Assembly (NCBI GenBank): GCA_964388415.1
Contig: CAYMAO010000001.1
Location: 65,072-129,071, forward strand
Reading direction: 5' to 3'
DNA from: an uncultured Planctomycetaceae bacterium
GTDB lineage: Bacteria; Planctomycetota; Planctomycetia; Planctomycetales; Planctomycetaceae
Length of the DNA stretch: 64,000 nucleotides
A model generated the notes under the pieces. The model searched no databases. It saw only the letters and a program-made list of their open reading frames with translations, and was not told the DNA's origin. The first letter of the stretch is position 1, and each line of letters opens with the position of its first letter. The position numbers and the translations under genes were made by a program. This document shows, piece after piece, positions 1 to 22,880 of the stretch.

Positions 1-296
1 TGGCTCGACACGGGGACGCATGATGCGCTGCTGGAAGCCGCCACATTTGTCAGCGTGATCGAAGCCCGACAAGGGTGGAAGGTGGCGTGCGTGGAAGAAA
101 TCGCCTGGCGGATGAACTTCATCGACGACGGCCAACTTCGGAAACTCGCCGAGCCGCTCCAGAAAAACCCTTACGGACAGTATTTACTCGACCTGCTCGA
201 GCGGGGGGAGTAAGCCCCCTGGTTGCGGCATCCACGACGATTCGCGCACAATCCGGGGACTGACGTCCTCCGCTCGGCATTTCTGAGGGTCCGCTC

Positions 297-842
297 ATGG
301 ACTACGAATACTACTTCATCCGCATGATCGGCTGGGGACCGGCGCTGTTGGTGCTGCTGTTCGGAGTCGTATTGGCCGTTCGCAACGGAACCATTTCTCG
401 ACGCGGCCGTTGGTGCCTGGCAGCGGCGATGGCGCTGCAGGCCGCGCAGATGCTGGCCGTGCCAATGATCAAACACGCGGCCAACGGACTGATGAATGCG
501 CCGGCAATCGCGTGGAACAAGATCATTGAAGACCATTCACCGACCCCCCAAACGTACGGCAACCCGCCCGCGCTGGAAGATGGTTTCTACTTTTCTGATC
601 TGCCAACCGCCGATCAACTTCCGCGCCCGAAAACTGGTCAAATGGCGAGCCTGTTTTTGTGTCCATCGCATCTCTCGGAAGAACAACTCGAACAGCATTG
701 GCAGTTCTATCGCGCGAAACGCTGGAAATGGACACTTTGGGACGTGCTCCCCGAGAGCCTTTTGACCGCGCTGACCTGGGGCCTGATTCTCTTCGCCGTC
801 TTCGACCGCCCGGCAGCGCCGAAGTTTCTGGCGGAGGAATGA
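297..842 (+). CDS. small 3-TM membrane protein, paralog A (hypothetical)
   Basis: ATG start. Three hydrophobic helices. C-terminal WGLILFAVFDRPAAPKFLAEE is conserved with the next ORF. N-terminal MDYEYYFIRM matches MDFEYQIARLM of paralog B. Confidence 0.55.
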   Translation: MDYEYYFIRMIGWGPALLVLLFGVVLAVRNGTISRRGRWCLAAAMALQAAQMLAVPMIKHAANGLMNAPAIAWNKIIEDHSPTPQTYGNPPALEDGFYFSDLPTADQLPRPKTGQMASLFLCPSHLSEEQLEQHWQFYRAKRWKWTLWDVLPESLLTALTWGLILFAVFDRPAAPKFLAEE

Positions 843-890
843 CCGACGGCGCGAAATCGTTTGCTAACGGAAGGGCCGAAAATCTTGGGC

Positions 891-1265
891 ATGGATTTTG
901 AGTATCAAATTGCACGGCTCATGGCTCTGACGCCGATGTTGCTGGTCGTCCTGGCCGGAACGACATTGGCGATTCGGCGGCTCCCCAAGTATCCGCGGCC
1001 CTGTTGGCTCATTCTGGCGGCGCTGGCCATCGATGCGTTCAGCAGTCTCGCGTTGCCGGTTGCCATGCAATACGTGACGTCGCTCCTGTCGATGAATACC
1101 GGCGTCCAGAATCACGTGATGATGGCGTTCCTCTGGACGTTGCCCTATAGCCTGATCTCTGCCTTGGTTTGGGGAATGGTTCTGTTCGCCGTTTTCGACC
1201 GACCCGACTCGCCGAAGTTCCTCAAGGAGGACGACCTGGAAAGGGATATTTTGGACCGCCCCTGA
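891..1265 (+). CDS. small 3-TM membrane protein, paralog B (hypothetical)
   Basis: ATG at 891 (track start 861 is TTG). Same architecture and C-terminal motif WGMVLFAVFDRPDSPKFL as paralog A. Lacks the ~60-aa Pro-rich insert of A. Confidence 0.5.
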   Translation: MDFEYQIARLMALTPMLLVVLAGTTLAIRRLPKYPRPCWLILAALAIDAFSSLALPVAMQYVTSLLSMNTGVQNHVMMAFLWTLPYSLISALVWGMVLFAVFDRPDSPKFLKEDDLERDILDRP

Positions 1266-1475
1266 TTCGAGAAAACGTCGGTCGCTCGGAATGGCTCTGC
1301 AATCGCACGGTTGCCGTCAACACGGGGCTGGCACCCGCCGCTCGGGAATTTCGCTGAGAATCTCGCTGCGCGACGCCCCATTTGCGGGTTCTCCCTTCTC
1401 AGGGTAAGATTCCCACTTGGCGAGCCGTGGCGCGAACCGGCTGGAGTGCATCGCGTTCGCCGGGGTGGTACTGAC

Positions 1476-3218
1476 GTGCCGTATCTGAAAGTCATCAAAG
1501 GCGGGCTTCCGGGGCAGCTCATCGAGTTGCAGGGAGAGCGGACCATTTTCGGCCGGCATCCCGGCTGCCAAGTGATGCTGGACAACTCGGCGATCAGCCG
1601 GCATCACGCGCAGATTATCGAGAATCACGGAACGTACTTTCTGGAAGATTTGCGAAGCCGCAACGGAACGCACTTGAACGACGTCGCCGTCCGCGGCCGC
1701 ATGGAACTGCACGACGCCGACGAAATCAAGCTCTGCGATTTTGTCTTTCATTTTCTGCTGCGCGCGCCGGCCGGGCCAGCCCCCGAACCCACGCAGACAT
1801 TCGACCGTTCTTCCGGCGTCCTGGGCGGCTTTCGGGCCAGGGAAGCAACGGCGGTGCGATCGTCGTCGCCTCTGATCTCGTTGCCGAAGTCATCCCTGGA
1901 GGAACCGCAGCAGGGTTCGTCGATCATCACGTCGGTGGATGCGGGGTCGGTTCGGACGGTGCGCTACAACGTTCGCCCGGAAGTGAAATTGCGAGCCGTG
2001 CTGGAGATCAGCGCCGCGGTCGGGCGGCTGTTGAAACTGGACGACATGCTGCCGGTGATCTTGCAGTCGCTCTTCAAGATCTTTCCACAGGCGGACGCCG
2101 GTTTCGTGCTGCTGAAAGATCCGGCGACCGAGAAGCTTTCGGTTCGGTCCTCGTTGCAGCGGGCACAGCAGGAAGACGACGACGTTCCGGTCAGCATGAC
2201 CATCGTCAACATGGCGATGGACGGAAAACGTGCCGTGCTCAGCGCTGACGCCACGGGCGATTCGCGGTTCAAGACCAGCGAAAGCCTGGCGGACATGCGG
2301 ATCCACTCGGTGATGTGCGTGCCGATGGTCACGCAGACGAACGAGGCGCTGGGCGTGATTCAGATCAGCACGGGAGACATCGCTCAGCAATTCTCCGCGG
2401 ATGATCTCGATCTGCTGGCCAGCGTCGGAGCGCAGGCGTCGCTCGCCGTGGAAAACGCGAAACTGCACGAGTCGCTGGTGGCTCAGCGCGATCTGGATCG
2501 CGAGCTGGAATTCGCCACGCAAGTGCAGCTCGGCTTTCTGCCCAGCGAGCCGCCGCACGTGCCCGGTTACGAATTCGCCGATTATTATGAACCGGCCAAC
2601 CGCGTGGGAGGCGACTACTTCGATTACGTCCCGTTGCCAAACGGAAATGTCGCGGTGGCGGTCGGCGACGTGGCGGGCAAAGGCGTCCCCGCCGCACTGT
2701 TGATGGCCCGGCTTCATGCGTCGGCCCGGTATCATCTGCTGAGCGCGACCGGCCCCGCGGACGCCATGACCAGCCTCAACGCGGAGATCGCCACGAGCGG
2801 GCTGGGCTTCCGGTTCATCACGCTGGTCATGGCGGTCATCAACGTGAAGACGCATCAGATTCACTTCGCAAACGCCGGGCATCTGCCGCCGCTCATCCGC
2901 CGAGCCAGCGGCGTGGTCGAGGCCGTCGGCATGAAGGAATCAGGAATGCCGCTGGGACTGGGCGGCCCGCAGACATTCCGGGAGATCACCGTCGCCCTGG
3001 AGGCCGGCGAGGCGTGCGTGCTGTATACCGACGGCGTCACGGAAGCCATTGATGCGCAGCAGGAAATCTACGGTCGCATTCGATTGAATGACGCCATCCA
3101 GCGGGCCCCGGCATCGGCCAAGGAACTGGTCCAGTCGGTCGTGGCAGACGTCGAAAAGTTTTACGGCGACCTGCCGCAGCGCGACGACCTGTGCATCGTC
3201 GCCACGCGCCGGCTGTAG
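1476..3218 (+). CDS. FHA-GAF-PP2C (SpoIIE/RsbU-type) serine phosphatase
   Basis: FHA signature GRHPGCQVMLDNSAISRHHAQI...RSRNGTHLN. Central GAF-like region. C-terminal PP2C/SpoIIE motifs GGDYFDY and GDVAGKGVPAALLMA. Start placed at GTG 1476, preceded by GGGGTGG. The TTG 1311 N-extension looks non-protein-like. Confidence 0.8.
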   Translation: MPYLKVIKGGLPGQLIELQGERTIFGRHPGCQVMLDNSAISRHHAQIIENHGTYFLEDLRSRNGTHLNDVAVRGRMELHDADEIKLCDFVFHFLLRAPAGPAPEPTQTFDRSSGVLGGFRAREATAVRSSSPLISLPKSSLEEPQQGSSIITSVDAGSVRTVRYNVRPEVKLRAVLEISAAVGRLLKLDDMLPVILQSLFKIFPQADAGFVLLKDPATEKLSVRSSLQRAQQEDDDVPVSMTIVNMAMDGKRAVLSADATGDSRFKTSESLADMRIHSVMCVPMVTQTNEALGVIQISTGDIAQQFSADDLDLLASVGAQASLAVENAKLHESLVAQRDLDRELEFATQVQLGFLPSEPPHVPGYEFADYYEPANRVGGDYFDYVPLPNGNVAVAVGDVAGKGVPAALLMARLHASARYHLLSATGPADAMTSLNAEIATSGLGFRFITLVMAVINVKTHQIHFANAGHLPPLIRRASGVVEAVGMKESGMPLGLGGPQTFREITVALEAGEACVLYTDGVTEAIDAQQEIYGRIRLNDAIQRAPASAKELVQSVVADVEKFYGDLPQRDDLCIVATRRL

Positions 3219-3365
3219 TAAAGCCCGTGGCGTGTAAAGCCGATGGGGTCTCCTGGTCCCGCCGCTTCGATTTTGCAACCATTTTCCTTGTGGAATTTCG
3301 TGACCCCGGTCTCTATGATAGGAGAGCCTGCAATTGTGCCCGCCGAATCTCCTTCCTGACGAAAG

Positions 3366-4469
3366 ATGATGACTGTGAGCAACTTGGATCAACTCGTCGC
3401 CAAGGCCAAGGCCGATCTGGACGCCCACACCCGCGAAAATGTCCGCTGGCATTTCAGTCCGGAAACCGGCAGCCCGTATTGGCTGGAAAAGGCGAAATCA
3501 CTCAAGTTCGATCCGCTCAAAGACGTCAACTGTTTCGACGATCTGAAAAAATTCCCGCTCTTTGAAGACGATGAACTTCGCGGCGGACCGGTCCAGCGCT
3601 GGATTCCGAAAGGCCTCGCCGGCAAACCGACCTACGTCTTCGAAACTGGCGGCACGACCGGCATCCCCAAATCCCGCGTCGTCATCGAAGATCACTGGAT
3701 CGACTACGAACTCTTCAGCGAAACCCTCGACGACAAGCATTTCCCCAAGGGATCCAACTGGCTGATGCTCGGACCGTCCGGTCCGCGCCGCTTGCGGTTG
3801 GCCGTCGAACATCTGGCCCAGTTCCGCGGCGGCATCTGCTTCTGCGTCGACCTCGATCCCCGCTGGGTGATCAAGCTCATCAAGCAGGGCAAGATCAAGG
3901 AAGCGGAGGCGTATAAGGATCACGTCATCGACCAGACGATGACCATCCTCTCCGCCGGCCACGAGATCAAGTGCGCGTTCATGACGCCCAAGCTGCTCGA
4001 AGCGCTCGCCATGCGGCTGATCAAGGAAGGTTCCAGCATCGCCGAGACCGGCATCAAAGGCATCTTCGGCGGCGGGACGGAATTCTCCCCGCAGTGGTAC
4101 CGTTTCTGCTGCGAGGAACTCCTGGGCCCGGACGTCTTCATGACGCCGACTTACGGCAACACCCTGATGGGCCTGGCCTGCTCCAAGCCGTTCGACATCG
4201 CCGACAACTACAAGATCACCTACCATGGCCCGCAGCCGCGCGCCGTGATCGAAGTCGTGAAATTTGAGGACTACAACCAGCTCGTCGGCTACGGCGAAAC
4301 GGGCCGCGTCAAGCTGTACACCATGACCAAGGAACTCTTCATCCCCGGTTTCATGGAACGCGATGAAGGCGAACGCGAAAAGCCGCACGAGAAATACCCG
4401 TGGGACGGCATCTCCGGGACGCGGCCGTTCCATGTGTTCGCGAAGACGACGACGGTGGGAGTGTATTGA
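3366..4469 (+). CDS. acyl-protein synthetase / adenylate-forming enzyme (LuxE- or PaaK/F390-synthetase-like)
   Basis: ETGGTTGIPKS adenylation motif (compare LuxE TSSGTNGLKS, PaaK SSGTTGKPK). ~367 aa, typical LuxE length. Sits next to a LuxC-like reductase. Confidence 0.65.
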   Translation: MMTVSNLDQLVAKAKADLDAHTRENVRWHFSPETGSPYWLEKAKSLKFDPLKDVNCFDDLKKFPLFEDDELRGGPVQRWIPKGLAGKPTYVFETGGTTGIPKSRVVIEDHWIDYELFSETLDDKHFPKGSNWLMLGPSGPRRLRLAVEHLAQFRGGICFCVDLDPRWVIKLIKQGKIKEAEAYKDHVIDQTMTILSAGHEIKCAFMTPKLLEALAMRLIKEGSSIAETGIKGIFGGGTEFSPQWYRFCCEELLGPDVFMTPTYGNTLMGLACSKPFDIADNYKITYHGPQPRAVIEVVKFEDYNQLVGYGETGRVKLYTMTKELFIPGFMERDEGEREKPHEKYPWDGISGTRPFHVFAKTTTVGVY

Positions 4470-4524
4470 AGGGGGGATAGCGGAAGAGAATTAGAGTGGG
4501 TGGAAATGATAGCGAGGTCGCGAA

Positions 4525-5088
4525 ATGACCATTGATGAATTCATCGCCAGCCCGCTGAGTGGTGATTGCAGCCTGCTCAAGCGACTCTATGACTTTGAAT
4601 ACCAAGCACTTGCAAACAAGCTGGGCTGTGTTCTCTCATTATTGGACATAGAGTCATATGAGGGAACGGCCTTGTGCAATCCAGCACTAACGCCAATTAA
4701 CTCCGTGACCTTTGCAACTACTGGGGGTGATGACGTTCATTTCGGACTAGTTGCAATCGAGCGGAAATATAGCGATTTATCGCCGATCGTAATGACAGTT
4801 CCCATGGCGGGCGACAACCCGAAAGAGACGAATTTCGTCGTGGGCGAGTCTTTACATGAATTTCTAAGGCTTGGCTGCGTACACGACTTTTTTGACCTGG
4901 AAAAGCTCGCATACTCATGGAGAACTGATTTATTTGGTCAGTATAAAAAAACACCTGCTCTGATTGATGAGCCAATCTACGTAAGATTTCGAAAAGAATT
5001 TGAACTGAAGCCATGGATTGAGCTGGAGTCGAGGTTTCAAGAACTCCAAAACAAATACTGGCCGCTATTGCGATTTCGGCGCGGATAA
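4525..5088 (+). CDS. hypothetical protein, low-GC orphan ORF
   Basis: ATG with GAGGT RBS 8 nt upstream. Visibly AT-richer than both flanking genes. No motif recognised. Soluble, acidic and aromatic-rich. Confidence 0.5.
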   Translation: MTIDEFIASPLSGDCSLLKRLYDFEYQALANKLGCVLSLLDIESYEGTALCNPALTPINSVTFATTGGDDVHFGLVAIERKYSDLSPIVMTVPMAGDNPKETNFVVGESLHEFLRLGCVHDFFDLEKLAYSWRTDLFGQYKKTPALIDEPIYVRFRKEFELKPWIELESRFQELQNKYWPLLRFRRG

Positions 5089-5143
5089 CTACCTCGCAAT
5101 TTTCTAAGCGAACTGTCTACACCTCTAACCCTCTGGATCTCTC

Positions 5144-6580
5144 ATGATCGAACTTCCCGTCCTCCGCTGGGGCAAACCGTACGAAAGTATGGAAAAGGCC
5201 GACGTCGTCCATTTTGAAACGGGCGAAGTCCTTGCCAAGGTCCATCAAGCCACCGGGTCGATGCTCGGCATGGACATGCGCCATGCCAAGAAGGCCCGAG
5301 ACGCCTTGCGGCAGCTTTCGATCGATCAGTTGATCGCGATGACAGCCAAGGCCGCCGACCTGTATTTGAACCAGACGCTGCCGCTCGGGACCGGCACGCA
5401 GTCCCCTGCCGAATTCTGCCGCATGCAGTCCGCGACCACCGGACTTCCAGAGCACATGTGCGCCGGCAACATGAAGAAGAATTACTTCGTGCTGACCCAC
5501 ATGCGCGACGTGCTGGAATCCCTCACCCGCGGGCTGCCGCTCGACATCTTCACCAAGGGCTTCGGTCAGGAAGCTCGCGGCGTGATGCTCAGCTACCAGG
5601 CGAATACGTCCGTCCTGGGCATGGTGCTCCCGTCCAACAGTCCGGGCGTCCATACGCTGTGGATGCCCGTCATCCCCTTGCAGATCGGCCTGGTCCTCAA
5701 GCCTGGCCCGCAGGAACCCTGGACCCCGTACCGCATGGCCGAAGCCTTCTTTCAGGCAGGCGTCCCTCGGGAAGCCATCTGCCTGTATCCCGGCGGACCG
5801 GACGTCGGCGCCGCCGTCATTGAACATTGCCCGCGGACCATGATCTTCGGCGGCACCGCCACCGTGGAACGCTACCACGGCGATCCCCGTGTCCAGGCTC
5901 ACGGCCCCGGCTTCAGCAAGTTGCTGCTCGGCGACGACGTCGTCGACAACTGGCCCGAATACCTCGACCTGATGTTCGACAGCATCGTGATGAACTCCGG
6001 CCGCGGCTGCATCAACTGCTCGGGCATCTGGGCGTCGCGTCATACGGAGGAGATCGCCGATGCGCTCGCCAAGCGGATGGGGCCGATTGCGCCGCTGCCC
6101 ATGACCGACCCGAAGGCCCAACTCGCTGCGTTCACGGTGCCGGGCCAGGCCGAGGCGATCAACAACCAGATCGATGAAGGCTGCAAAGCGTCCGGCGTGA
6201 CCGAAGTGACGGCGAAATATCGCGACGGTTCCCGCTGGGTGAAAAACGAACGCTGCGATTATTTGCGGCCGACGCTGATCCACTGCAACGCGCCGGGTTC
6301 GGACATGTCCAAGGCGGAATACATGTTCCCGTTCGCCTCGGTCGTGAAATGTCCGCAGGCCGACATGCTCAAGAAAATCGGCCAGACGCTGGTCTGCTCG
6401 GCGATCACCAAGGACGAGAAATGGTCGCAGGAACTGCTCGATGCGACGCACATCGACCGGCTGAACATCGGCCCCTTGAAAACGATCGCCCTCAACTGGC
6501 TGCAGCCGCACGAAGGGAACATCATTGACTTCCTGTTCCGCAACCGCGCGTTCCAGAACAGCCCGCCGCCGCCGCATTAA
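5144..6580 (+). CDS. LuxC-like long-chain acyl-CoA reductase (aldehyde dehydrogenase superfamily)
   Basis: Aligns by eye to V. harveyi LuxC: NSPGVHTL...KPGPQ; IFGGTATVERYHGD vs VAWGGPDAINWAVEH; catalytic-Cys region SGRGCINCSGIW vs DQRACFSAQNIY. 478 aa. Confidence 0.65.
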   Translation: MIELPVLRWGKPYESMEKADVVHFETGEVLAKVHQATGSMLGMDMRHAKKARDALRQLSIDQLIAMTAKAADLYLNQTLPLGTGTQSPAEFCRMQSATTGLPEHMCAGNMKKNYFVLTHMRDVLESLTRGLPLDIFTKGFGQEARGVMLSYQANTSVLGMVLPSNSPGVHTLWMPVIPLQIGLVLKPGPQEPWTPYRMAEAFFQAGVPREAICLYPGGPDVGAAVIEHCPRTMIFGGTATVERYHGDPRVQAHGPGFSKLLLGDDVVDNWPEYLDLMFDSIVMNSGRGCINCSGIWASRHTEEIADALAKRMGPIAPLPMTDPKAQLAAFTVPGQAEAINNQIDEGCKASGVTEVTAKYRDGSRWVKNERCDYLRPTLIHCNAPGSDMSKAEYMFPFASVVKCPQADMLKKIGQTLVCSAITKDEKWSQELLDATHIDRLNIGPLKTIALNWLQPHEGNIIDFLFRNRAFQNSPPPPH

Positions 6581-6714
6581 CGAGATCAGATCGCCGCTTG
6601 CCGTTTCGCGGCGCTGACCGCATGCCTGACATCAGTTTTCGTGTTGAGTCAACCGGCCGATTTCGCGTACAGTGCTCGAATCGGAAACGGACATATTTCA
6701 CGGAGGAACGGCGC

Positions 6715-7521
6715 ATGCGCTGCCGCAGGGTCTGGTGTGTCGTCTTGTTGGCGGGTCTCGGTTGTGGGGAAACCAAGACTCCCCCCTCGGCGGCAGCCAA
6801 TCCTGCCAAGACTGTTCCGCCGAAAAACGGAGAACTGCTGTCCGCGCCGTCGTCGAACGGGCGGTCCAACGCAGTTGCCGACAAGGCGTTCGCCGATCTG
6901 CTCGAAGCGACGCATGGCTCGAACCCCGACGCCTGGAGCGCGGCCGAGAAATCGCTGACCGAACTCGGGGCGCAGGCTGTTCCCGCATTGGCGCGTTACT
7001 TGGCTCACGACGATCAGACGGCCCGGGAACTCGCCGTGCAGTTTCTGGCCCAACTCGGGCCGGACGCCAAAGGAGCGGAGCCTGCGTTGACGAAAGCTCT
7101 GGCCGACGACTCGCCGATGGTTCGCGTCAATGCGGCGGCGGCGCTCTTGGCGCTCAATGCGTCCGCCACGGAGGCTGTCGCCGCGCTGCGGTCGATGCTC
7201 CAAGATGATGATGCGTCGGTCCGATTGCCTGCCGCGATTTCGCTGGCCGGGATGTCTGACGCCGTGAAGGATGCCGTTCCCGTGCTGACCGAACTACTGA
7301 CCGCCCGGGAACCCAGTATTCGGCAGACCGCAGCCGAAACGCTGGGAAAGCTGGGGAAGAATGCGGAGTCGAGCCTGGGCGCGCTCCAGCAATTGGAGTC
7401 GGACGATAACACCGAGGTCCGCTCCGCAGCCGCAGCAGCCGTGAATGCGATCGAGGCTGCGGAGAACTCCTCGTCAGAGACGAAGCCGGCGGACAGCGTC
7501 GAGAACGAAACGAATCCGTGA
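6715..7521 (+). CDS. HEAT/PBS-lyase repeat protein with N-terminal signal peptide (possible lipoprotein)
   Basis: ATG 6715 preceded by GGAGGA. Signal peptide MRCRRVWCVVLLAGLGCG. Repeated HEAT-like units (AVPALARYLAHDD..., AEPALTKALADDSPMVRVNAAAAL..., AVPVLTELLTAREPSIRQTAAETLGKLG). Confidence 0.7.
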   Translation: MRCRRVWCVVLLAGLGCGETKTPPSAAANPAKTVPPKNGELLSAPSSNGRSNAVADKAFADLLEATHGSNPDAWSAAEKSLTELGAQAVPALARYLAHDDQTARELAVQFLAQLGPDAKGAEPALTKALADDSPMVRVNAAAALLALNASATEAVAALRSMLQDDDASVRLPAAISLAGMSDAVKDAVPVLTELLTAREPSIRQTAAETLGKLGKNAESSLGALQQLESDDNTEVRSAAAAAVNAIEAAENSSSETKPADSVENETNP

Positions 7522-7629
7522 AGCGAACGGAGCAGTTTTCTCGCGACGCGGCGACTTCCTGGCGGAGCGCTGTGTTCCGCCACGGCACCTGTGTACGATG
7601 ATTCTCAGTTCATTCCTGAGGATCGCCCC

Positions 7630-8748
7630 ATGTCGCAATCCGTGCCTGAAATTGTGCCGGCCGATTATTTGCCGAAATTGCCGCGCGATCGTTCGCCCGG
7701 CATTGGGTGCATCGGCACCGGGTTCATCATGGCCGATTGTCACCTCGTGGCATATCGGCAAGCCGGGTTTCGGCCGGTGGCCATCACGTCGCGGCAGCGG
7801 CAAAATGCGGAGGCCGTTGCGGCTCGGCATCGGATTCCTCGCGTCCATGACGATGTGAAGTCTCTCGCGGCTGATCCCGAGGTGGTCGTCGTCGACGTCG
7901 CCGTTCCGCCGGATATTCAGCACGAGGTGATTCGTGAAGTCTTGACACGGGGCAAGCAGATTCGCGGCATCCTGGCGCAAAAACCGCTGGGTGTGGATTA
8001 TCGGCAGGCGAAAGACATTGTGCGGATGTGCCGGGACGCCGGGGTGACGCTCGCCGTCAATCAGAATATGCGCTACGACCAGTCGGTCCGAGCGGCGAAA
8101 TCGCTTTTAGAAAAAAAACGGCTCGGCGACCCGGTGCTGGCGACGATCGATATGCGGGCCATTCCGCATTGGATGCCGTGGCAAGAGCGGCAGGGCTGGG
8201 TCACTTTGCGAATCATGAGCATCCATCATCTGGACACGTTCCGATTCTGGCTGGGCGATCCTGTCCGCGTCTTCGCCAGCATTCGGCCTGATCCGCGCAC
8301 GGCGAAGAAATTCGCCCATGAAGACGGCATCTGCCTGTATATCCTCGAATTTGCGAACGGCGCCCGGGCTTCGAGTTGGGATGACGTCTGGGCCGGTCCG
8401 GCGCGCGAGGGTGCCGGCGCGGACATCGGCATCCAGTGGCGGATTGAAGGAACCGAGGGGTTAGCCCGCGGGACAATCGGCTGGCCCGAATATCCCAAGC
8501 CGACGTCCAGTACGCTGGATTTCTCCACAATTCACGACGCCGGGACGTGGCATCAGCCGCGCTGGCCGGAAGTCTGGTTTCCGGACGCATTTGTCGGGCC
8601 GATGGCTCAATTGTTGTGCGCTCTGGAAGACGGCACTCCGCCGGAAATCAGCGGTGACGACAACCTGAAGACGATGGCCCTGGTCGATGCGTGCTATCTT
8701 TCGGCCCGAGAGCATCGCGCGGTGGAACTGGCCGAAGTTCTTGCTTGA
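7630..8748 (+). CDS. Gfo/Idh/MocA family oxidoreductase
   Basis: Rossmann N-terminus [22 protein letters not shown] and Gfo/Idh/MocA C-domain. ATG 7630 with GAGGA 9 nt upstream. Track start 7591 is GTG. Confidence 0.75.
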
Positions 8749-8753
8749 CGTGA

Positions 8754-10133
8754 ATGGTGAGGGTGATGGCTCAACATCTTCAAGAGCGGTCGCTGCCGCG
8801 AAACGTGCGATTGCTCTTGGTGGATGTGGCCGGGCAGAAGGTCAACACCTTTACCGCCGAAGTGATTCGGGAGTTCGCGGACTTTCTCGCCGAGATTTCT
8901 CGGCAGCCGGACGTGCGCGGCCTGATCGTGGCCAGCGGCAAGCCGGGGCAGTTTTTCGCCGGGGCCGACCTGCATGATCTCGCCGATCCGAATCCTGCCG
9001 CACACGTGCGATGGACTTCGGCCATTCTCGACGGCAATCGCTTGATGACGGTGTTGTCGGAACTGCCGTTTCCCACGGTGACGCTGATCAACGGCGCCTG
9101 CCTGGGCGGCGGCGCGGAACTGGCGCTCGCGACGGATTTCCGCGTCGTCGCCGACGAGCCGCAGGTGAAAATCGGCCTGCCGGAAGTGACGCTCGGCCTG
9201 ATTCCCGGCTGGGGCGGCACGCAACGGCTGCCCCGACTCGTGGAGTTGGGCGCGGCGTTGGAGATGATCGTCACGGGCCAGCCGGTGGATGCCCGGCGTG
9301 CGGCGGACATCGGTCTGGTGGATGCCGTTGTACCTGCCGACCGGTTGCTTGACGCCGGCCTGGCGCGGATCGAAGACATGCAGCAGTCGCAAGAGTGGCG
9401 TGCGATGCGTCAACAGCGGAGACAACCGTTGACCTTGTCCGAGGAGCACCAGTCGCAACTATTTTCCGCTGCGGAAGCCGGGCTGCTCCAGAAATCGCCG
9501 GAGTCGAATTCCGCCCCGTGGACTGCGTTCCGCGTGGTGCGGGACGGCGTCGTGGTGCCACTGGAAGACGGGTTAGCACTTGAACGGACGGAGTTCTTGC
9601 ATCTGGTCGGCAGCCCCGTTTCCACAAAACTGATTACAGAGTTTTTCAATACATCGCGTCGGCAGCGTTCCGCGGACGTCCAGGAAGCTGGCAACACGCC
9701 CCGAGCGTTGCAGACCGTCGGAGAACAGGGAGCACGCATGTCTGAGCCACGGACGAATCCCTTCCTCGGCCATTTGCAACTGCCGCCGGTCACAGTCAGC
9801 GAGCAGGTGGCCCGGCTGGAATTCACGGTGGAGGCGATTCATCTCCGGCACGGCGGCGTCGTGCACGGCGGATTGCTGGCCGCGGTTTTGGACAGCGTGT
9901 CAGGGTACGCCGCTTATGAAGTTGCACCGCCCGGGACAGACCTGGTCTCCGTGCAGTTGAACTTGAATCTGACGGCGACGGCCCGGTTGGGTGACCGACT
10001 GACCGCCACGGCTCGGGTGCAACATGCCGGTCGCCGCACGGCCGTGGTGCAGGGGGAAATCCGCCGCGGCGATGGTAAGCTGGTCGCGTTGGGGAGCGTG
10101 ACGGTTTTTTTCATCGCGGAAGGGCTCACGTAG
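8754..10133 (+). CDS. enoyl-CoA hydratase/isomerase (crotonase) fused to PaaI/4HBT hotdog thioesterase
   Basis: Crotonase motifs FFAGADL and GGGAELALATDFRV. C-terminal hotdog motif HGGVVHGGLLAAVLDS. Confidence 0.75.
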   Translation: MVRVMAQHLQERSLPRNVRLLLVDVAGQKVNTFTAEVIREFADFLAEISRQPDVRGLIVASGKPGQFFAGADLHDLADPNPAAHVRWTSAILDGNRLMTVLSELPFPTVTLINGACLGGGAELALATDFRVVADEPQVKIGLPEVTLGLIPGWGGTQRLPRLVELGAALEMIVTGQPVDARRAADIGLVDAVVPADRLLDAGLARIEDMQQSQEWRAMRQQRRQPLTLSEEHQSQLFSAAEAGLLQKSPESNSAPWTAFRVVRDGVVVPLEDGLALERTEFLHLVGSPVSTKLITEFFNTSRRQRSADVQEAGNTPRALQTVGEQGARMSEPRTNPFLGHLQLPPVTVSEQVARLEFTVEAIHLRHGGVVHGGLLAAVLDSVSGYAAYEVAPPGTDLVSVQLNLNLTATARLGDRLTATARVQHAGRRTAVVQGEIRRGDGKLVALGSVTVFFIAEGLT

Positions 10134-10166
10134 TTTCTCGTTCGAACTCGTCGTAAGATCATCAGG

Positions 10167-11075
10167 ATGAATCACTCGTCAATCACACTGTCGGCGGGAG
10201 CGCGGTTTCGTGCGGCAATAGACGCCGAACGGCCGCTTCAAGTGGTCGGCACGGTCAATGCGTATTGTGCGCTGTTGGCCGAGCGGGCCGGTTTTCGGGC
10301 GTTGTATCTGTCGGGAGCGGGCGTGGCGAATGCGTCGTTCGGTCTGCCGGACCTGGGCATCACCACGCTGAATGACGTGTGTGAAGACGTTCGCCGCATC
10401 ACCCAGGCAACGCCGCTGCCGTTGTTGGTCGATGCCGATACGGGCTGGGGCGGGGCTTTCCTGATCGGGCGCACGATCCGGGAGTTGCACCGAGCCGGCG
10501 CGGCGGGTTGCCATCTCGAAGACCAGGTGCAGGCGAAGCGGTGCGGTCATCGTCCTGGGAAAACGCTGGTCAGCAGTGCGGAAATGTGTGACCGGCTGAA
10601 AGCCGCGATGGATGCCTCGCCCGATGATCAGTTCGTGATCATGGCTCGGACCGATGCCCATGCGGTGGAAGGACTGACGGCGGCCATCGATCGAGCCGGG
10701 GCCTATGTCGACGCCGGGGCCCACATGATCTTCGCCGAGGCGCTCACCAGCCTGGAAGACTATCGGGCTTTCACCCAGGCGATCTCGGTGCCCGTGCTGG
10801 CGAACATCACCGAATTCGGCAAGACGCCCTTGTTTCGCACCGACGAACTCGGCGCCAGTGGAGTGCGGCTGGTGCTCTACCCCTTGAGCGCCTTCCGCGC
10901 GATGAATCGCGCCGCCGAACGGGTTTATCGTACGCTCAGGAAGGAACAGTCCCAGGCTTCGGTTCTCGAACTGATGCAAACCCGAGACGAACTGTACGAT
11001 GTCCTCGGCTATCTCCGCTACGAGCAGCAGCTCGACGCGTTGTTTTCTCACGATCCACCCGGCAAGCCGTCATGA
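10167..11075 (+). CDS. prpB: 2-methylisocitrate lyase (PEP mutase/ICL superfamily)
   Basis: KRCGH active-site signature within [15 protein letters not shown]. Overall PrpB-like sequence. 4-nt overlap (ATGA) with the downstream citrate synthase homolog. Confidence 0.8.
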
Positions 11076-12226
11076 GTGATTCTCCAGCCAATTCGCAGTT
11101 CAAGCCGAAAAAATCGGTGGCGCTGTCGGGCGTCATCGCAGGCAATACCGCGCTGAGCACCGTCGGCCAGACCGGCAACGACCTGCATTACCGCGGATAC
11201 GACATCCGGGACCTCGCCGCGAACTGCGAGTTCGAAGAAGTCGCGTACCTGTTGATCCACGGCACGCTGCCGAACGCCACGGAACTCGCCGCGTACAAGG
11301 CGAAGCTGCAATCGCTGCGAACTTTGCCGACCGCGGTGTGCCGCGTGTTGGAGAATCTTCCTCAGGCAACGCATCCGATGGATGTGCTGCGGACCGGCGT
11401 TTCTGTTCTGGGTTGCCTGGAGCCGGAAGCGCAGACTCATGATCCGGCCATGGCCCGAGACCTGATCGACCGGTTGCTGGCATCGCTCGTCTCGATGCTG
11501 CTGTACTGGCATCACTTCGCTGCGCAGGGCCGCCGCATCGATGTTTCGTCATCGGAAAGCTCAGTGGGGGGCCAGTTTCTGCAACTGCTGCACGGTTCGC
11601 GCCCGCCGGCGTCGCAGGTGCAGGCCATGCACGGGTCGCTGACCCTCTATGCTGAACATGAATTCAATGCGTCGACGTTTGCGGCAAGAGTCATAGCCGG
11701 AACCGGATCCGATCTGTATTCCGCCGTGACGGGGGCCATTGGTGCGCTGCGCGGTCCGAAACACGGGGGGGCGAATGAATACGCGTTCCTGATCCAGAGC
11801 CGCTATGCAACACCCGATGAAGCCGAGGCCGACATCCTGAGACGCATGGCCGCGAAGGAAATTCTCATCGGCTTTGGACATCCCGTCTACACGATTTCCG
11901 ATCCGCGGAACGAGGCGATTAAGGAGATCGCCCGCTCGCTCTCCGAAGCGGCCGGCGACATGACGCTGTTTCACATCGCGGAGCGCATCGAAACGGTGAT
12001 GTGGCGCGAGAAGAAAATGTTTCCCAATCTCGACTGGTACAGCGCGGTGGCCTATCACCGGTTGGGTATCCCCACGGCCATGTTCACTCCGTTGTTTGTG
12101 CTGGCCCGCATCACAGGCTGGGGGGCTCACGTGCTGGAGCAGCGTGCGGACAACAAGATCATCCGGCCCGGGGCCCATTACGTCGGGCCGGACAATCGGC
12201 CCTTCGTGCCTCGGGATCGGCGCTGA
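11072..12226 (+). CDS. prpC: 2-methylcitrate synthase / citrate synthase family
   Basis: Citrate synthase family sequence (GYDIRDL..., GFGHPVY, HGGANE). Translationally coupled to prpB. Confidence 0.8.
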
Positions 12227-12289
12227 TTTCTCATTGTCGTCTGTAAGCCCTTTTGCGCCCCCCCGCTCGGGTCGAGATCCCAGCGCGAA

Positions 12290-13222
12290 TCACATCTCTC
12301 GGGCCGATTCACGGCCGGGGATTCTGCGATAGATCTGCAGCATTCCGATCAGCATCACGAATCCGAGGCCCGCGAGCGCCGCCAGAATCAACAGGCCATA
12401 CCAGTCACCGAAGATGCCGCGCGTGCGGAGCCAGATCGGCCCCCAACTGTACAAGACGATCAGCGCGCCGCCGCCGAGAAACGGCCCGAACGGAATGTAG
12501 GGCTTGTTGGTCATCAGCTTGAGCGGAATCCCGACCAGCAGCCCCAAGAGCGGCGCGAGCAGAAACGCGCAGACCGCGGGCTGCCAGCCAAGAAAACTGC
12601 CGATCACCGCCATCAGCGTGACATCCCCGAACCCCAGCGTTTCCCGGCCCATGAGCCAACTGCTCACGGCGCGCACCAGCCACGTCAGGCCCGCGCCGAT
12701 GACCAGTCCGGCACCGCTCCAGGACAGCCCATGCCAGTGACGGTGGGCGTCAAACCAGTCGGGAAAATACGGCCCGCGAACCTGCGGCATTTCGATGCTC
12801 CAATCCACCCACAGATGGATCAACTGCAGCTCGCCGGAGAGAAACGCCGCCAGTAAGCCCACCGCCATCCCGGGCAGGGTGATCTGATCCGGGATCACGT
12901 AGCCGTCCCAATCCACGGCGGTGGCGACGAGAATCAGGCCGATCAGCACCTGGTGGTAGATTAACCGAAGGTTCTCACCCCAGGGCGATGGCAAAACCTC
13001 CGGGGTCGCTTGCCCGCCGGCGGCAACCTTTTGAGCCAGAATGACGCACAGGCCAATGTACCAGAGAGTCATCGTCCCGATCCGCAGGCGTTGCGTGCCG
13101 ATCGAAAGTGCCGTTCGGCCAGTTTCGCGGCGATCTTGAACAATCAATCGCAGCGACCACCAGCCGAAGAACAGGCCCAGAGGAGGAGCGATCAGAACGG
13201 TGATCGAGACTGGATTCTGCAA
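12290..13222 (-). CDS. A24-family type IV prepilin leader peptidase
   Basis: Polytopic membrane protein with GFGDVTLMAVIGSFLGW matching the prepilin peptidase catalytic-Asp region. True start may be an internal Met (e.g. MTLWYIG). Confidence 0.7.
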   Translation of the reverse strand: MQNPVSITVLIAPPLGLFFGWWSLRLIVQDRRETGRTALSIGTQRLRIGTMTLWYIGLCVILAQKVAAGGQATPEVLPSPWGENLRLIYHQVLIGLILVATAVDWDGYVIPDQITLPGMAVGLLAAFLSGELQLIHLWVDWSIEMPQVRGPYFPDWFDAHRHWHGLSWSGAGLVIGAGLTWLVRAVSSWLMGRETLGFGDVTLMAVIGSFLGWQPAVCAFLLAPLLGLLVGIPLKLMTNKPYIPFGPFLGGGALIVLYSWGPIWLRTRGIFGDWYGLLILAALAGLGFVMLIGMLQIYRRIPGRESAREM

Positions 13223-13347
13223 GCGGCGGATTCCCTTCAGATCAGAAACATATCCATCCAGACGCTTCAGTTCGTGAACGGTGTTGGATACGATTGGAAA
13301 TTCCTGCCGCGGTCTTGAGGCGGCAATTTCGTGAATGCTGAAGCATT

Positions 13348-13364
13348 CGGCACCAATGTTGCAA
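13348..13364 (+). promoter_or_regulatory. sigma-54 (-24/-12) promoter for amt
   Basis: cGGCACcaatgTTGCA matches TGGCAC-N5-TTGCA with correct GG/GC spacing, ~118 nt upstream of the amt start. Immediately preceded by palindrome GAATGCTGAAGCATTC (13332-13347). Confidence 0.6.
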
Positions 13365-13481
13365 TAGTATCGGCTCGGTGGTGAACCGACAGCGAGCGTG
13401 CCGGACGGCTCGCAGGCTCAGCGGAAATGGCTCAAGGCCACGTTCAACATCGTATCTATTTACTATAAAAGGGGTTGTGAG

Positions 13482-14879
13482 ATGGGTCGGCTATTCGGGA
13501 TTCTGCTCGCGGTGATTTTTGCAACCTGTTTTTCAGAAACAACTTACGGAGATATTGAAGTCGCCAGCCCTCCGGCGGCCGCTCCTGCGTCCGTCCCGTT
13601 GGACAAAGCCGATATCACTTGGGTGCTTGTTTCTTCGGCATTGGTGCTCATGATGACGGCACCTGGTCTGGCGTTGTTTTATGGCGGGCTCGTTCGCAAA
13701 AAAAATATTCTGGGGGTGATGATGCAGTGCATGTTCCTCATGGGGATCATGTCGCTCGTCTGGGCGCTCTGGGGTTACAGCCTCGCCTTCAGCGGCGACG
13801 TGGGCGGGTACGGAGTGATTGGGGACCTCGGGTTTGTCGGCCTTCAAGGCGTGATGCCGACGGCTGCCGCGGCAGGAGAATATCCGAAAGATGATACCGC
13901 CACCATTCCACGCATGTTGCACATGATTTTCCAGATGATGTTCTTCATTATTACGCCGGGGCTGATTTGCGGCGCCTTTGCCGAGCGGATGAAATTCTCG
14001 GCGATGGTCGTCTTTTCGGTGCTTTGGGGAACGCTGATCTACTGTCCGGTCGCGCATTGGGTCTGGTCGGGCAGCGGCTGGTGTTCGGAATTCAACACGA
14101 ATGTCGCGTTCAAGATCAAGGCCATTGATTTTGCCGGCGGGACGGTGGTGCACATCACATCGGGGTTCTCGGCGCTGGTCTGTGCGCTGCTGTTGGGAAA
14201 GCGGCTGGGCTACGGTCAAGAGCCGATGCCGCCGCACAACTTGACATACACCTGTATCGGAGCGGCTCTGTTGTGGGTCGGTTGGTTCGGCTTCAACGGG
14301 GGCAGCCAATTGGCGTCAGACGTCCGCGCGGTGAACGCCTTCGTGTCGACGCACATGGCGGCAGCCGCCGGGCTGGTGGCGTGGGCCGGGATGGAATGGG
14401 TATTGCGCGGCAAGCCGAGCATCCTGGGGGCGTGTTCCGGCGCGGTCGCCGGGCTGGTCTGCATCACGCCCGCCTGCGGTTCGGTCACGCCGATGAACGG
14501 CATCCTCCTGGGCCTGGCGGCGGGCGTGGTCTGTTACTATGCGTGCACGAAACTCAAGAATCAGTTCAAGTATGATGACTCGCTGGACGCATTCGGCGTC
14601 CACGGCGTCGGCGGGACGCTGGGGGCCATTCTGACCGGCGTGTTCGCCTCCAAGGCGATCACCGGCCCGACCGGGTTGCACGGGTTGATCGAAGGAAACG
14701 CGAAGCAGTTCGTCGATCAGTTGATTGCCATCGGCGCGGCGGCTGCATTGGCCATCGTCGGCACGGTGATTCTGCTGAAAGTCATCGATGCCGTGATCGG
14801 GCTTCGCATCAGCCAGGCCGGCGAACTGCAGGGGCTGGACATCAATCAACATGGTGAAGAAGGCTATATCTTCCTATAA
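13482..14879 (+). CDS. amt: ammonium transporter (Amt family)
   Basis: Signal/TM N-terminus and Amt signature DFAGGTVVHI. ATG 13482 with AAAAGGGG RBS. Track start 13398 is GTG. Confidence 0.9.
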   Translation: MGRLFGILLAVIFATCFSETTYGDIEVASPPAAAPASVPLDKADITWVLVSSALVLMMTAPGLALFYGGLVRKKNILGVMMQCMFLMGIMSLVWALWGYSLAFSGDVGGYGVIGDLGFVGLQGVMPTAAAAGEYPKDDTATIPRMLHMIFQMMFFIITPGLICGAFAERMKFSAMVVFSVLWGTLIYCPVAHWVWSGSGWCSEFNTNVAFKIKAIDFAGGTVVHITSGFSALVCALLLGKRLGYGQEPMPPHNLTYTCIGAALLWVGWFGFNGGSQLASDVRAVNAFVSTHMAAAAGLVAWAGMEWVLRGKPSILGACSGAVAGLVCITPACGSVTPMNGILLGLAAGVVCYYACTKLKNQFKYDDSLDAFGVHGVGGTLGAILTGVFASKAITGPTGLHGLIEGNAKQFVDQLIAIGAAAALAIVGTVILLKVIDAVIGLRISQAGELQGLDINQHGEEGYIFL

Positions 14880-15284
<405 letters not shown>

Positions 15285-15300
15285 TTCCTCTCGAGAGGAA
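15285..15300. promoter_or_regulatory. perfect 16-bp palindrome TTCCTCTCGAGAGGAA between the two PII genes
   Basis: Immediately follows the glnK stop (15282-15284). Perfect dyad. Not followed by a T-tract. Confidence 0.4.
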
Positions 15301-15322
15301 CCCCACTGATCAATCTGCCTGA

Positions 15323-15679
<357 letters not shown>

Positions 15680-15701
15680 AGCGGGATGAGACACGAAAAA
15701 C

Positions 15702-15852
15702 ACGTTCGGCGCGGGTCTCCTGACCCCGCCGACTTCTTGCCTGCGGTCTCCTGACCGCTGTTCGGAATCCTGTGACACGTAACATCGGCATTAAACAGGG
15801 AGCGGGAGTCCCAAGAAGAAAACGGCGGGGTCAGGAGACCCTCGCCGAACGT
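15702..15852. repeat. composite palindromic repeat cluster: two 29-nt inverted arms (28/29 match) plus an internal third unit GCGGTCTCCTGACCGC
   Basis: Arm1 ACGTTCGGCGCGGGTCTCCTGACCCCGCC at 15702-15730. Arm2 at 15824-15852 is its reverse complement with one mismatch. Each unit also contains a local hairpin GGGTC-TCCT-GACCC. Confidence 0.6.
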
Positions 15853-15950
15853 CGAAGCCAAATGCTCATGCCTTGCCTTTTCGTGCGTTCTAGTGTTTTT
15901 TGTGGCAGCCCTGCCTTGAATTGTCTCCGGATTTCCTCGGGCCATCGATC

Positions 15951-21890: not shown

Positions 21891-22172
21891 CTGCGTGGAC
21901 ACAATCGCCGCAACCTGTTTTCCATGAAACTCTTGCAGCGATTCTTCCGCAAACTGCGTGTCGTCGCGCAACCGCTCCCGTCTGACAACTTTGGTCCTTC
22001 TTGCAAGATTTCTCAAATTTCTTGAGAGATTTTCACCATAGCTCTCATTTCTATTGCAGACGGGTGAACCGTCACCCGCCGCATCCCGGGACTGATTTCG
22101 ACCCGTGGGCTGTGGGGGGAAATGTCCCCCTGAAGGGATACGAATTTCATATTACTTGGAGGAGGATAAGCG

Positions 22173-22880
22173 ATGGGACGCGTACTGTTGACGGCGCTTG
22201 CATTGGCAGGCTTATGCCGTGACGCCAGCGCCGGCATTATGGTGGATTCAATCAATCCCAGTGCCTCACCGAAAGAAAATATCAATTATGACTCTTCCTG
22301 GATTGGTATCGGCTGGTACTACACACCCGGCCAGGACTATGAGTTGACCCGTATCGAGAGCTTGTTCAATCCGATTCCTCACGCATCATCTCCGCCGCAG
22401 AAGCCAATCGCAATCAAGTTGTTTGATGATCGCCCCGTAGAAGGCGGAGTGTTGTTGGCGGAGTCTGCATTTACGCTGAATGTTCGTAATGGCGGCTGGC
22501 AAGGCACCGACTTTCTTCCGTTTGAACTTACCGCCGGCCAGCGTTACTTCTTGGCTTTTGAAGGAATCGCACTTGTAGGAATAAACCTCTCAACTTGGGA
22601 GTTTGTGGGTGGATTGCCAACGCTTTCGGGTGGCGCGACGGAGAGTTTGGGGGCCTATTACAGAGACCTTAACTACGCCACGGAGGTCACCGACCAATTT
22701 CAAGTTGCAAGTCCGACTGGAAACGTGAGTGGCACGTCCCCGATTCTCAGATTTTTTGGAAACCTTCCTGATCCACCTCCTCCTCCCTCCGTCCCCGAAC
22801 CCGGCACGTTGACTTTGGCGGGCCTTGGCATTGTCGGCTTGCTCGGGGCGCGGTGGCGGAAGCGGCGGGCGGGGAATTGA
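22173..22880 (+). CDS. PEP-CTERM sorting-domain secreted protein
   Basis: Signal peptide MGRVLLTALALAGLC. C-terminal VPEPGTLTLAGLGIVGLLGARWRKRR is a PEP-CTERM anchor. GGAGGAGG RBS. GC content lower than neighbours. Confidence 0.8.
   Translation: MGRVLLTALALAGLCRDASAGIMVDSINPSASPKENINYDSSWIGIGWYYTPGQDYELTRIESLFNPIPHASSPPQKPIAIKLFDDRPVEGGVLLAESAFTLNVRNGGWQGTDFLPFELTAGQRYFLAFEGIALVGINLSTWEFVGGLPTLSGGATESLGAYYRDLNYATEVTDQFQVASPTGNVSGTSPILRFFGNLPDPPPPPSVPEPGTLTLAGLGIVGLLGARWRKRRAGN

Follow-up and report, generated by a model that had tools for sequence, protein, structure and literature searches.

We report here that a small gene of foreign origin, which encodes a 187-amino-acid (aa) protein of a large but unnamed family, is inserted as a single gene between two metabolic genes of an uncultured Planctomycetaceae bacterium. 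The stretch of DNA analysed (hereafter the window) covers 64,000 nucleotides (nt) of assembly GCA_964388415.1 (contig CAYMAO010000001.1, positions 65,072 to 129,071, forward strand), and the insert occupies the spacer between a gene for an EhpF-like adenylating enzyme and a gene for an aldehyde-dehydrogenase-family (ALDH) protein. Our results show that the open reading frame (ORF) is a genuine protein-coding gene, that it was horizontally acquired, and that the spacer is an insertion-tolerant slot of which it is the seventh, lineage-specific occupant. Regarding its function, a role as an orphan, stand-alone immunity-type binder that would neutralise a toxin domain is the best-supported proposal, to which we give about an even chance.

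The initial annotation had singled out the segment 4480-5100, within which the ORF falls, as AT-richer than both flanks, and the AT-rich strings that it quoted are indeed present in the sequence. This observation is correct and far beyond chance: the ORF has a G+C (GC) content of 0.459 against a window mean of 0.610 (standard deviation 0.033 over 564-bp windows; z = -4.6), GC falls from ~0.60-0.65 in both flanks to 0.45-0.47 over the ORF, and the global minimum of the 64 kb is the 564-bp window starting at 4584, inside the ORF, the lowest such window elsewhere having a GC of 0.514 (at 21918). Codon composition is equally deviant, with codon-position GC values of 0.53/0.37/0.49 and a third-position GC (GC3) of 0.49 versus 0.69-0.85 in 43 putative window genes (~0.76 +/- 0.04; z ~ -7). 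In addition, the homologues found in four other loci (L005, L006, L008 and L013) lie 5-14 GC points under their hosts. Since the gene departs from the window in both GC and GC3, and since its homologues are also poor in GC relative to their hosts, we consider it foreign.

Synteny leads to the same result. Relatives were scanned at one genome per species, which gave 80 Planctomycetaceae loci (L015-L094, from Schlesneria, Planctomyces, Planctomicrobium, Fuerstiella and metagenome-assembled genomes) with orthologues of the EhpF-like gene at 74-87% identity, and in 66 of them the ALDH gene lies directly downstream on the same contig. No homologue of the 187-aa gene was detected in any of the 80 loci, including the 66 with both flanking genes (tblastn, 1e-5), and no homologue examined adjoins an EhpF/ALDH pair. 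Of the 66 spacers, 43 do not exceed 243 bp, two measure 334-368 bp and the other 21 are 462 bp or longer; these 21 long spacers hold six other, unrelated kinds of insert, all of them on the same strand as the pair (Table 1). The presence of six unrelated inserts in one and the same spacer argues for a slot that tolerates insertions, in which the 187-aa gene is a lineage-specific arrival; its spacer (GC 0.47, with flanks of 0.59 and 0.62) shows a GC deficit exceeding those of all 21 insert-bearing spacers. Two of the other occupants, the 23S_rRNA_IVP/TIGR02436 and the GxxExxY/PDDEXK_3 (TIGR04256) genes, are Planctomycetes hitch-hikers which share this spacer and orientation in other lineages and which are, like the 187-aa gene, single small genes without fixed partners, although they have no sequence or fold relation to it and its composition deviates more than theirs.

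The protein belongs to a large family. A word-indexed protein search returned 35 homologues with 38-63% identity, none of which carries a name or annotation, while an exhaustive profile (hidden Markov model) search of 1.84 billion cluster representatives (50%-identity clusters) retrieved 794 clusters at E<=1e-3, 561 at E<=1e-10 and 164 at E<=1e-30. The alignment displays the near-invariant motifs TP-x-N, TGGD(D/G)VH, SP(I/V)VMTVPM, N-x-(I/V)-V-G and EFL-x-LG; the window ORF is full length relative to its homologues, has every family-invariant residue, and was found as an identical protein in an identical context in four independent assemblies. The 80 metagenome loci with family members range from 30 to 74% GC, which implies many phyla, and a scan of viral contigs gave no carrier of the family. 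As had been noticed from the sequence, the protein contains no recognised motif: no Pfam, NCBIfam, PADLOC or PHROGs model matches the family (matches to the latter two being confined to the ankyrin part of one fusion protein), and a profile search of PDB sequences gave nothing at E<=10. Tandem duplications were seen within the family, as were fusions with ankyrin repeats or with an N-terminal zinc ribbon. Such architectures were reportedly described for SUKH immunity proteins by Zhang, Iyer and Aravind in 2011.

Homologues were found in unrelated contexts. The closest of them are located after a DUF1501 gene, after a methyltransferase gene and before a FliG-like gene, between an MR_MLE gene and small ORFs, or near WD40/TPR genes with an integrase fragment. 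Among ten same-strand genes checked immediately 5' of family members, eight represent as many unrelated families (LepA, amidase, NhaA, aminotransferase, ALDH, GFO/IDH/MocA, Kelch/Ig and PD40) and two are without Pfam match. Note that the upstream neighbour is on the same strand in 39 of 60 cases, a proportion within the general bacterial range from which no conclusion is drawn. DNA similarity between the window and the homologue loci is limited to the ORF and ~13 nt upstream, which defines no cassette boundary, and alignment with empty-site relatives did not fix the insertion junctions, the spacers not being conserved between species. Altogether, the suggestion of a horizontally acquired insertion is well founded, as the gene is absent from the 80 related loci, is extreme in GC3 and has homologues in unrelated contexts, two of which are mobile elements (see below).

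Locally, the gene is fitted tightly into its surroundings. Both flanking genes are on the + strand like the ORF, with a 55-nt spacer on each side, and a Shine-Dalgarno-like GAGG (4514-4517) stands 7 nt ahead of the ATG at 4525, which bears out the ribosome-binding site attributed to the gene by the initial annotation. A related motif, GAG(G/T)TCGC, precedes the ATG in L005 and L006, the two closest homologues, and the blastn match to L005, the closest, begins 13 nt 5' of the ATG; no similarity was found between the downstream spacer and the downstream flanks of homologues. Within 3000-7000, there is no terminator-like site, no promoter-like site on the + strand (the single such site being on the - strand) and no Rfam family. 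A 98-aa antisense ORF at 4718-5014 recurs only in contigs with the identical 187-aa gene and is a by-product of its coding frame.

AlphaFold2, run on the product of 4525-5085 with the family alignment, predicted a confident structure (mean predicted local distance difference test, pLDDT, 92.8; predicted template-modelling score, pTM, 0.90) with two N-terminal helices, five strands and five helices. When this model was compared with known structures, the eukaryotic protein HPF1 (histone PARylation factor 1; PDB 6TVH/6TX1) came first, followed by proteins of the SUKH superfamily and type VI immunity proteins, namely (scores in brackets) the DUF1851 immunity protein 8G0K_D (6.0), Smi1/Knr4 3D5P (5.2), 2ICG (5.1), YobK 2PRV (5.0), 2PAG (5.0), Atu4351 6ITW (4.8), Knr4 5J1B (4.4) and RhsPI 8BD1_B (4.4), with FBXO3 and Syd lower in the list. 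A Foldseek search of the viral BFVD returned no significant match; the best-ranked entry, below significance, was a cytomegalovirus GP28.1 protein. The predicted protein thus has the alpha/beta core of the SUKH superfamily (SMI1/KNR4; e.g., B. subtilis YobK 2PRV and RhsPI 8BD1_B; PF09346, PF14567 and PF14568), to which the model adds a family-specific C-terminal helical extension of ~70 residues (H123-181). It differs from SUKH proteins by this extension and by an unusually invariant motif set, as well as by the lack of a Pfam SUKH match and of a cognate toxin in our searches; judged by sequence, it stands outside every described SUKH family. The DUF1851/Tdi type VI immunity proteins (8G0K_D, 6ITW_A) have no sequence similarity to it and align over only 94-102 residues, and no type VI secretion system or effector gene was found near the 187-aa gene.

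The gene neighbourhoods of the family point in the same direction as the fold. Among 142 genes within two positions of members, the commonest Pfam families are DUF4303 (3), SMI1_KNR4 (3), DUF7710 (2) and SUKH_6 (2). In one locus (L129), the family gene is part of a same-strand array which reads DUF7710, family gene, DUF4303, one unassigned gene, Imm43, Imm33-like, two unassigned genes and Imm50, and in another (L171) a SMI1_KNR4 gene comes after it. The L129 array resembles the polyimmunity arrays of Imm families, and most copies of the family are, like orphan immunity genes, without toxin partner and patchily distributed; in contrast to such arrays, the copy in the window stands alone within a metabolic operon. 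Taken together, the fold, the immunity neighbours, the architectures and the patchy, context-independent and mobile distribution make an immunity function the best supported. The immunity-like character proposed for the gene in the initial annotation has therefore fared better than the accessory role proposed beside it, through the SUKH-type fold matches and the L129 array, even if no toxin was found.

On this basis, we propose the following scenario. The gene arrived by horizontal transfer and landed in the short spacer of the EhpF-like/ALDH pair, a spacer which in Planctomycetaceae has accepted small same-strand genes repeatedly; its insertion route is inferred. It would probably be read from the transcript of the host operon, because it has its own ribosome-binding site but no promoter-like site or terminator. 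The product would be a cytoplasmic, stand-alone protein with the predicted SUKH (SMI1/KNR4)-type alpha/beta core and C-terminal helical extension, whose most likely task is to bind a toxin domain that competing bacteria deliver and to neutralise it, and which would take no part in the carboxylate-activation and reduction chemistry of its neighbours.

Several observations weigh against this scenario. Concerning arrival, direct and inverted repeats, an attC-like site and target-site duplications occur within 4300-5300 only at chance level, no integrase or transposase is found among the genes called ~6 kb either side of the insert, and no tRNA lies near it, the only one being 40 kb away; the window copy is thus without the recombination site, terminal repeats and nearby integrase or transposase that characterise an integron cassette or an insertion sequence. 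Concerning function, no toxin gene was found beside the window copy or among the ten same-strand upstream neighbours of homologues, the cases of immunity arrays belong essentially to one low-GC lineage (L129, L116 and L135), and only one (L171) of the three SMI1_KNR4 neighbours was located. None of 74 members matches the SUKH Pfam models (PF09346, PF14567, PF14568 and relatives) at E<=0.1, and hhalign against a 12-sequence SUKH-1 alignment is not significant (probability 1.8%, P 0.027), even though it aligns the core block GDG-H...P-V...F-x-x-F and its score was reached by 0 of 100 block-shuffles. Finally, the polar residues T56, N59, D69, H72, T91 and N103 are near-invariant across phyla, which is unusual for immunity proteins because those adapt to diverse toxins; such residues would be no less in keeping with an enzyme, or with a protein that has a single conserved partner.

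This last point speaks for an alternative in which the protein is an enzyme or a small-molecule binder, the TGGD(G/D)VH ... SPVVMTVPM ... N-x-I-V-G residues forming an active or ligand site and the SUKH-like fold being a mere scaffold. Indeed, the six polar residues remain near-invariant at 30-40% overall identity in hosts of 30-74% GC, and a solitary, context-independent distribution suits a self-sufficient enzyme. However, no enzyme family was matched in Pfam, NCBIfam or PDB sequences, the fold matches are binding and immunity proteins and HPF1 rather than enzymes, and the family co-occurs with immunity genes, so that we regard an enzymatic role as unlikely.

The family has also been carried by mobile elements. 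The L013 homologue lies between an IS91/Y2 transposase gene and small ORFs, inside a ~5.07-kb unit that also encodes a tyrosine recombinase and is present on a long-read contig in three copies of 97-99.9% identity (Table 1), which points either to a small circular element read as a concatemer or to a tandem amplification. In L095 (1481-4873), a few genes separate a distant member (183 aa) from a RepSA/REP_ORF2-G2P replication-initiator gene, which suggests an integrative element of actinomycete type; in addition, the closest homologue has a phage-integrase fragment in its vicinity and IS4/5 transposases are among the neighbours of family members. These cases would suit a cargo gene that serves the element itself, in maintenance, anti-defence or regulation, and of which the window copy would be a remnant stranded by an IS91-type or integrative element. 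Most loci nevertheless have no mobile-element gene nearby, viral contigs and PADLOC or PHROGs models provide no carrier or match, and the window copy is surrounded by no transposase, integrase or terminal repeats; we therefore find such a cargo role rather improbable.

The resemblance to HPF1 deserves separate consideration. Foldseek against PDB gave HPF1 as its sole notable match (probability 0.84), at a borderline TM-score of 0.46, and the two domains of HPF1 are described in a 2025 review as having 'no known structural homologs' (PMC12596734). An hhalign comparison of the family with an alignment of 24 vertebrate HPF1 sequences, in which the human sequence is identical to PDB 6M3G_A, reached a probability of 5.2% (P 0.0076, 38 columns), a score equalled by 2 of 100 block-shuffles, and its confident part spans HPF1 residues 48-85 only. 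A relaxed alignment is colinear and places the family TP, GGD, H72, SP and VGE...FL opposite PP, GD122, H128, LP140 and GDN...FL of HPF1; the residues so paired are invariant in both families, the alignment being unreliable in its C-terminal part. PF10228 (HPF1/DUF2228) matched none of 74 members, with no significant profile-profile match, and literature searches pairing HPF1 with SUKH or KNR4 yielded nothing beyond author names and unrelated papers. Moreover, HPF1 is a eukaryotic nuclear protein of nearly twice the length, and its acidic corner Asp283/Glu284 has no demonstrated counterpart in the 187-aa family. The link, which concerns the N-terminal part of HPF1, is suggestive and not proven, and we put forward only as a tentative and rather doubtful idea that this family, with at least 794 clusters in many bacterial phyla and no Pfam entry, is the first prokaryotic relative of HPF1.

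One could extend this resemblance to function and see in the protein an HPF1-like cofactor that, instead of simply blocking a toxin, would attach to an ADP-ribosyltransferase or some other enzyme and there modulate or complete the active site. In HPF1, the residues that contact PARP and complete its active site, Asp283 and Glu284, lie in the C-terminal domain (PMC12596734), while the part matched here appears to be the N-terminal region; the hhalign probability is only 5%, PF10228 finds no member, and no ADP-ribosyltransferase gene was seen beside any family member examined. Such a cofactor role has, in our opinion, a slim chance.

The position of the gene within the operon could also indicate a lineage-specific accessory subunit of the pathway encoded by its neighbours, such as one that stands in for an acyl-transfer step of the LuxD type, as the initial annotation had suggested for what it called a LuxE/LuxC-like operon. 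The 367-aa upstream protein is a full-length homologue of EhpF (PDB 3hgu/3l2k; E 5e-42, residues 17-357) with weak AMP-binding and F390-synthetase matches, and the 478-aa downstream protein matches Pfam Aldedh (E 1.6e-20) and PDB aldehyde dehydrogenases. In a phenazine operon, ehpF (AMP-binding) adjoins ehpG, of the aldehyde dehydrogenase family (PMC11278526), and the pair of the window is plausibly, by analogy, a couple of carboxylate-activating and carboxylate-reducing enzymes. The comparison with Lux holds loosely, in that the pair, made up like ehpF/ehpG of an adenylating enzyme and an ALDH-family protein, is analogous to LuxE/LuxC of the LuxCDE fatty-acid reductase; however, the LuxE and LuxC models of Pfam hit neither flanking protein at E<=1, and the pair is EhpF/EhpG-like. 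Location between both genes on the same strand, tight spacing and the lack of a terminator would agree with an accessory subunit. Against this, 0 of 66 orthologous pairs carry a homologue and these pairs work without it, no homologue was found beside such a pair, six other unrelated inserts use the same spacer, the codon usage is foreign, and the protein displays no LuxD-like feature and neither signature (Pfam, NCBIfam) nor fold of an acyltransferase or alpha/beta-hydrolase. An accessory role is consequently contradicted by synteny and very improbable. Lastly, the view that the ORF is noise, either a pseudogene in decay or a frame that is open by chance in an AT-rich spacer, draws on its orphan-like look and the absence of annotation in any source, but is contradicted to the point of being negligible by its full length, its retained invariant residues, the size and conservation of the family, the confident predicted structure and the identical sequence in four independent assemblies.

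Table 1. Coordinates of the insert and its flanks in the window, of the repeated unit of a homologue locus, and occurrence of the other inserts in the EhpF-like/ALDH spacer of relatives
Feature	Location	Strand	Remarks
Upstream host gene, EhpF-like truncated ANL-superfamily adenylating enzyme, 367 aa	3366..4469	+	PDB EhpF match
Upstream spacer, 55 nt	4470..4524	+	Holds GAGG 4514-4517; DNA similarity to L005 from ~4512
187-aa ORF (plus stop)	4525..5088	+	Low-GC, foreign; unnamed family; SUKH/HPF1-like predicted fold
Downstream spacer, 55 nt, before the aldehyde-dehydrogenase gene	5089..5143	+	No terminator, repeat or RNA family
Downstream host gene, aldehyde-dehydrogenase-family, EhpG-like partner, 478 aa	5144..6580	+	Pfam Aldedh
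Repeated unit of L013 (ENA ERZ25074695 ctg323744_1x_c)	1-16614		~5.07-kb unit x3: 195-aa ORF, tyrosine recombinase, IS91/Y2 transposase, 187-aa homologue, 80-aa ORF
Insert: 23S_rRNA_IVP / TIGR02436 four-helix-bundle protein	9 loci	Same as pair	
Insert: 85-aa ORF + clan-AA-aspartic-protease-like ORF	5 loci	Same as pair	Closest relatives of the window among them
Insert: GxxExxY / PDDEXK_3 protein	3 loci	Same as pair	
Insert: 455-aa AAA_28+NUDIX protein	2 loci	Same as pair	
Insert: four tandem paralogues of ~75 aa	1 locus	Same as pair	
Insert: PSCyt/DUF1552 pair	1 locus	Same as pair	

Other observations were made in the window. Directly 5' of the EhpF-like gene, 1311-3218 (+) encodes an FHA-GAF-SpoIIE (PP2C phosphatase) multidomain protein, for which the TTG start of the ORF at 1311 is probably too early, as the gene call in a matching contig gives a protein of 580 aa. 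A 486-aa antisense ORF at 5117-6577 (-) covers nearly all of the aldehyde-dehydrogenase gene and is a high-GC shadow ORF, not a gene. Further upstream, two adjacent ORFs at 297-842 and 861-1265 (+), of 181 and 134 aa, appear to be paralogous copies, in tandem, of a small membrane protein gene; they share the ending ...W-G-(L/M)-(I/V)-L-F-A-V-F-D-R-P-x-x-P-K-F-L... and have no Pfam match on record. The second-lowest-GC stretch of the window (~0.51-0.52, ~21.9-22.8 kb) contains a 235-aa ORF at 22173-22880 (+) whose N-terminus resembles a signal peptide and whose C-terminus bears a PEP-CTERM-like motif, VPEPGTLTLAGLGIVGLLGARWRKRR. Finally, 8754-12226 (+) looks like a methylcitrate-type propionate module, in which an enoyl-CoA hydratase-4HBT thioesterase fusion is followed by a PEP-mutase/isocitrate-lyase-family gene and a citrate-synthase-family gene, the latter two overlapping by 4 nt.

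A foreign orphan gene in an operon is in itself an ordinary event, and the interest of the present case lies in an unnamed but widespread family, in a spacer where genes land recurrently and in a possible link to HPF1. For genome annotation, the consequence is mostly housekeeping: the 187-aa gene is to be described as a foreign, stand-alone accessory gene and not as part of the carboxylate-reducing pair. More generally, a sizeable family with a confident predicted structure is missing from Pfam and NCBIfam and is a candidate for curation as a new immunity-type family. In Planctomycetaceae, the EhpF-ALDH spacer acts as a natural 'landing pad' that has received at least seven small gene sets in one orientation, and therefore lends itself well to studies of the tolerance of operons to hitch-hiking genes. 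As for HPF1, the resemblance is weak but consistent, and it gives a starting point for tests of where a protein now held to be structurally unique came from; if the relationship were true, the N-terminal region of HPF1 would be a SUKH-like module, and HPF1 would descend from bacterial immunity-type proteins that dock onto the active sites of toxins, possibly ADP-ribosyltransferases.
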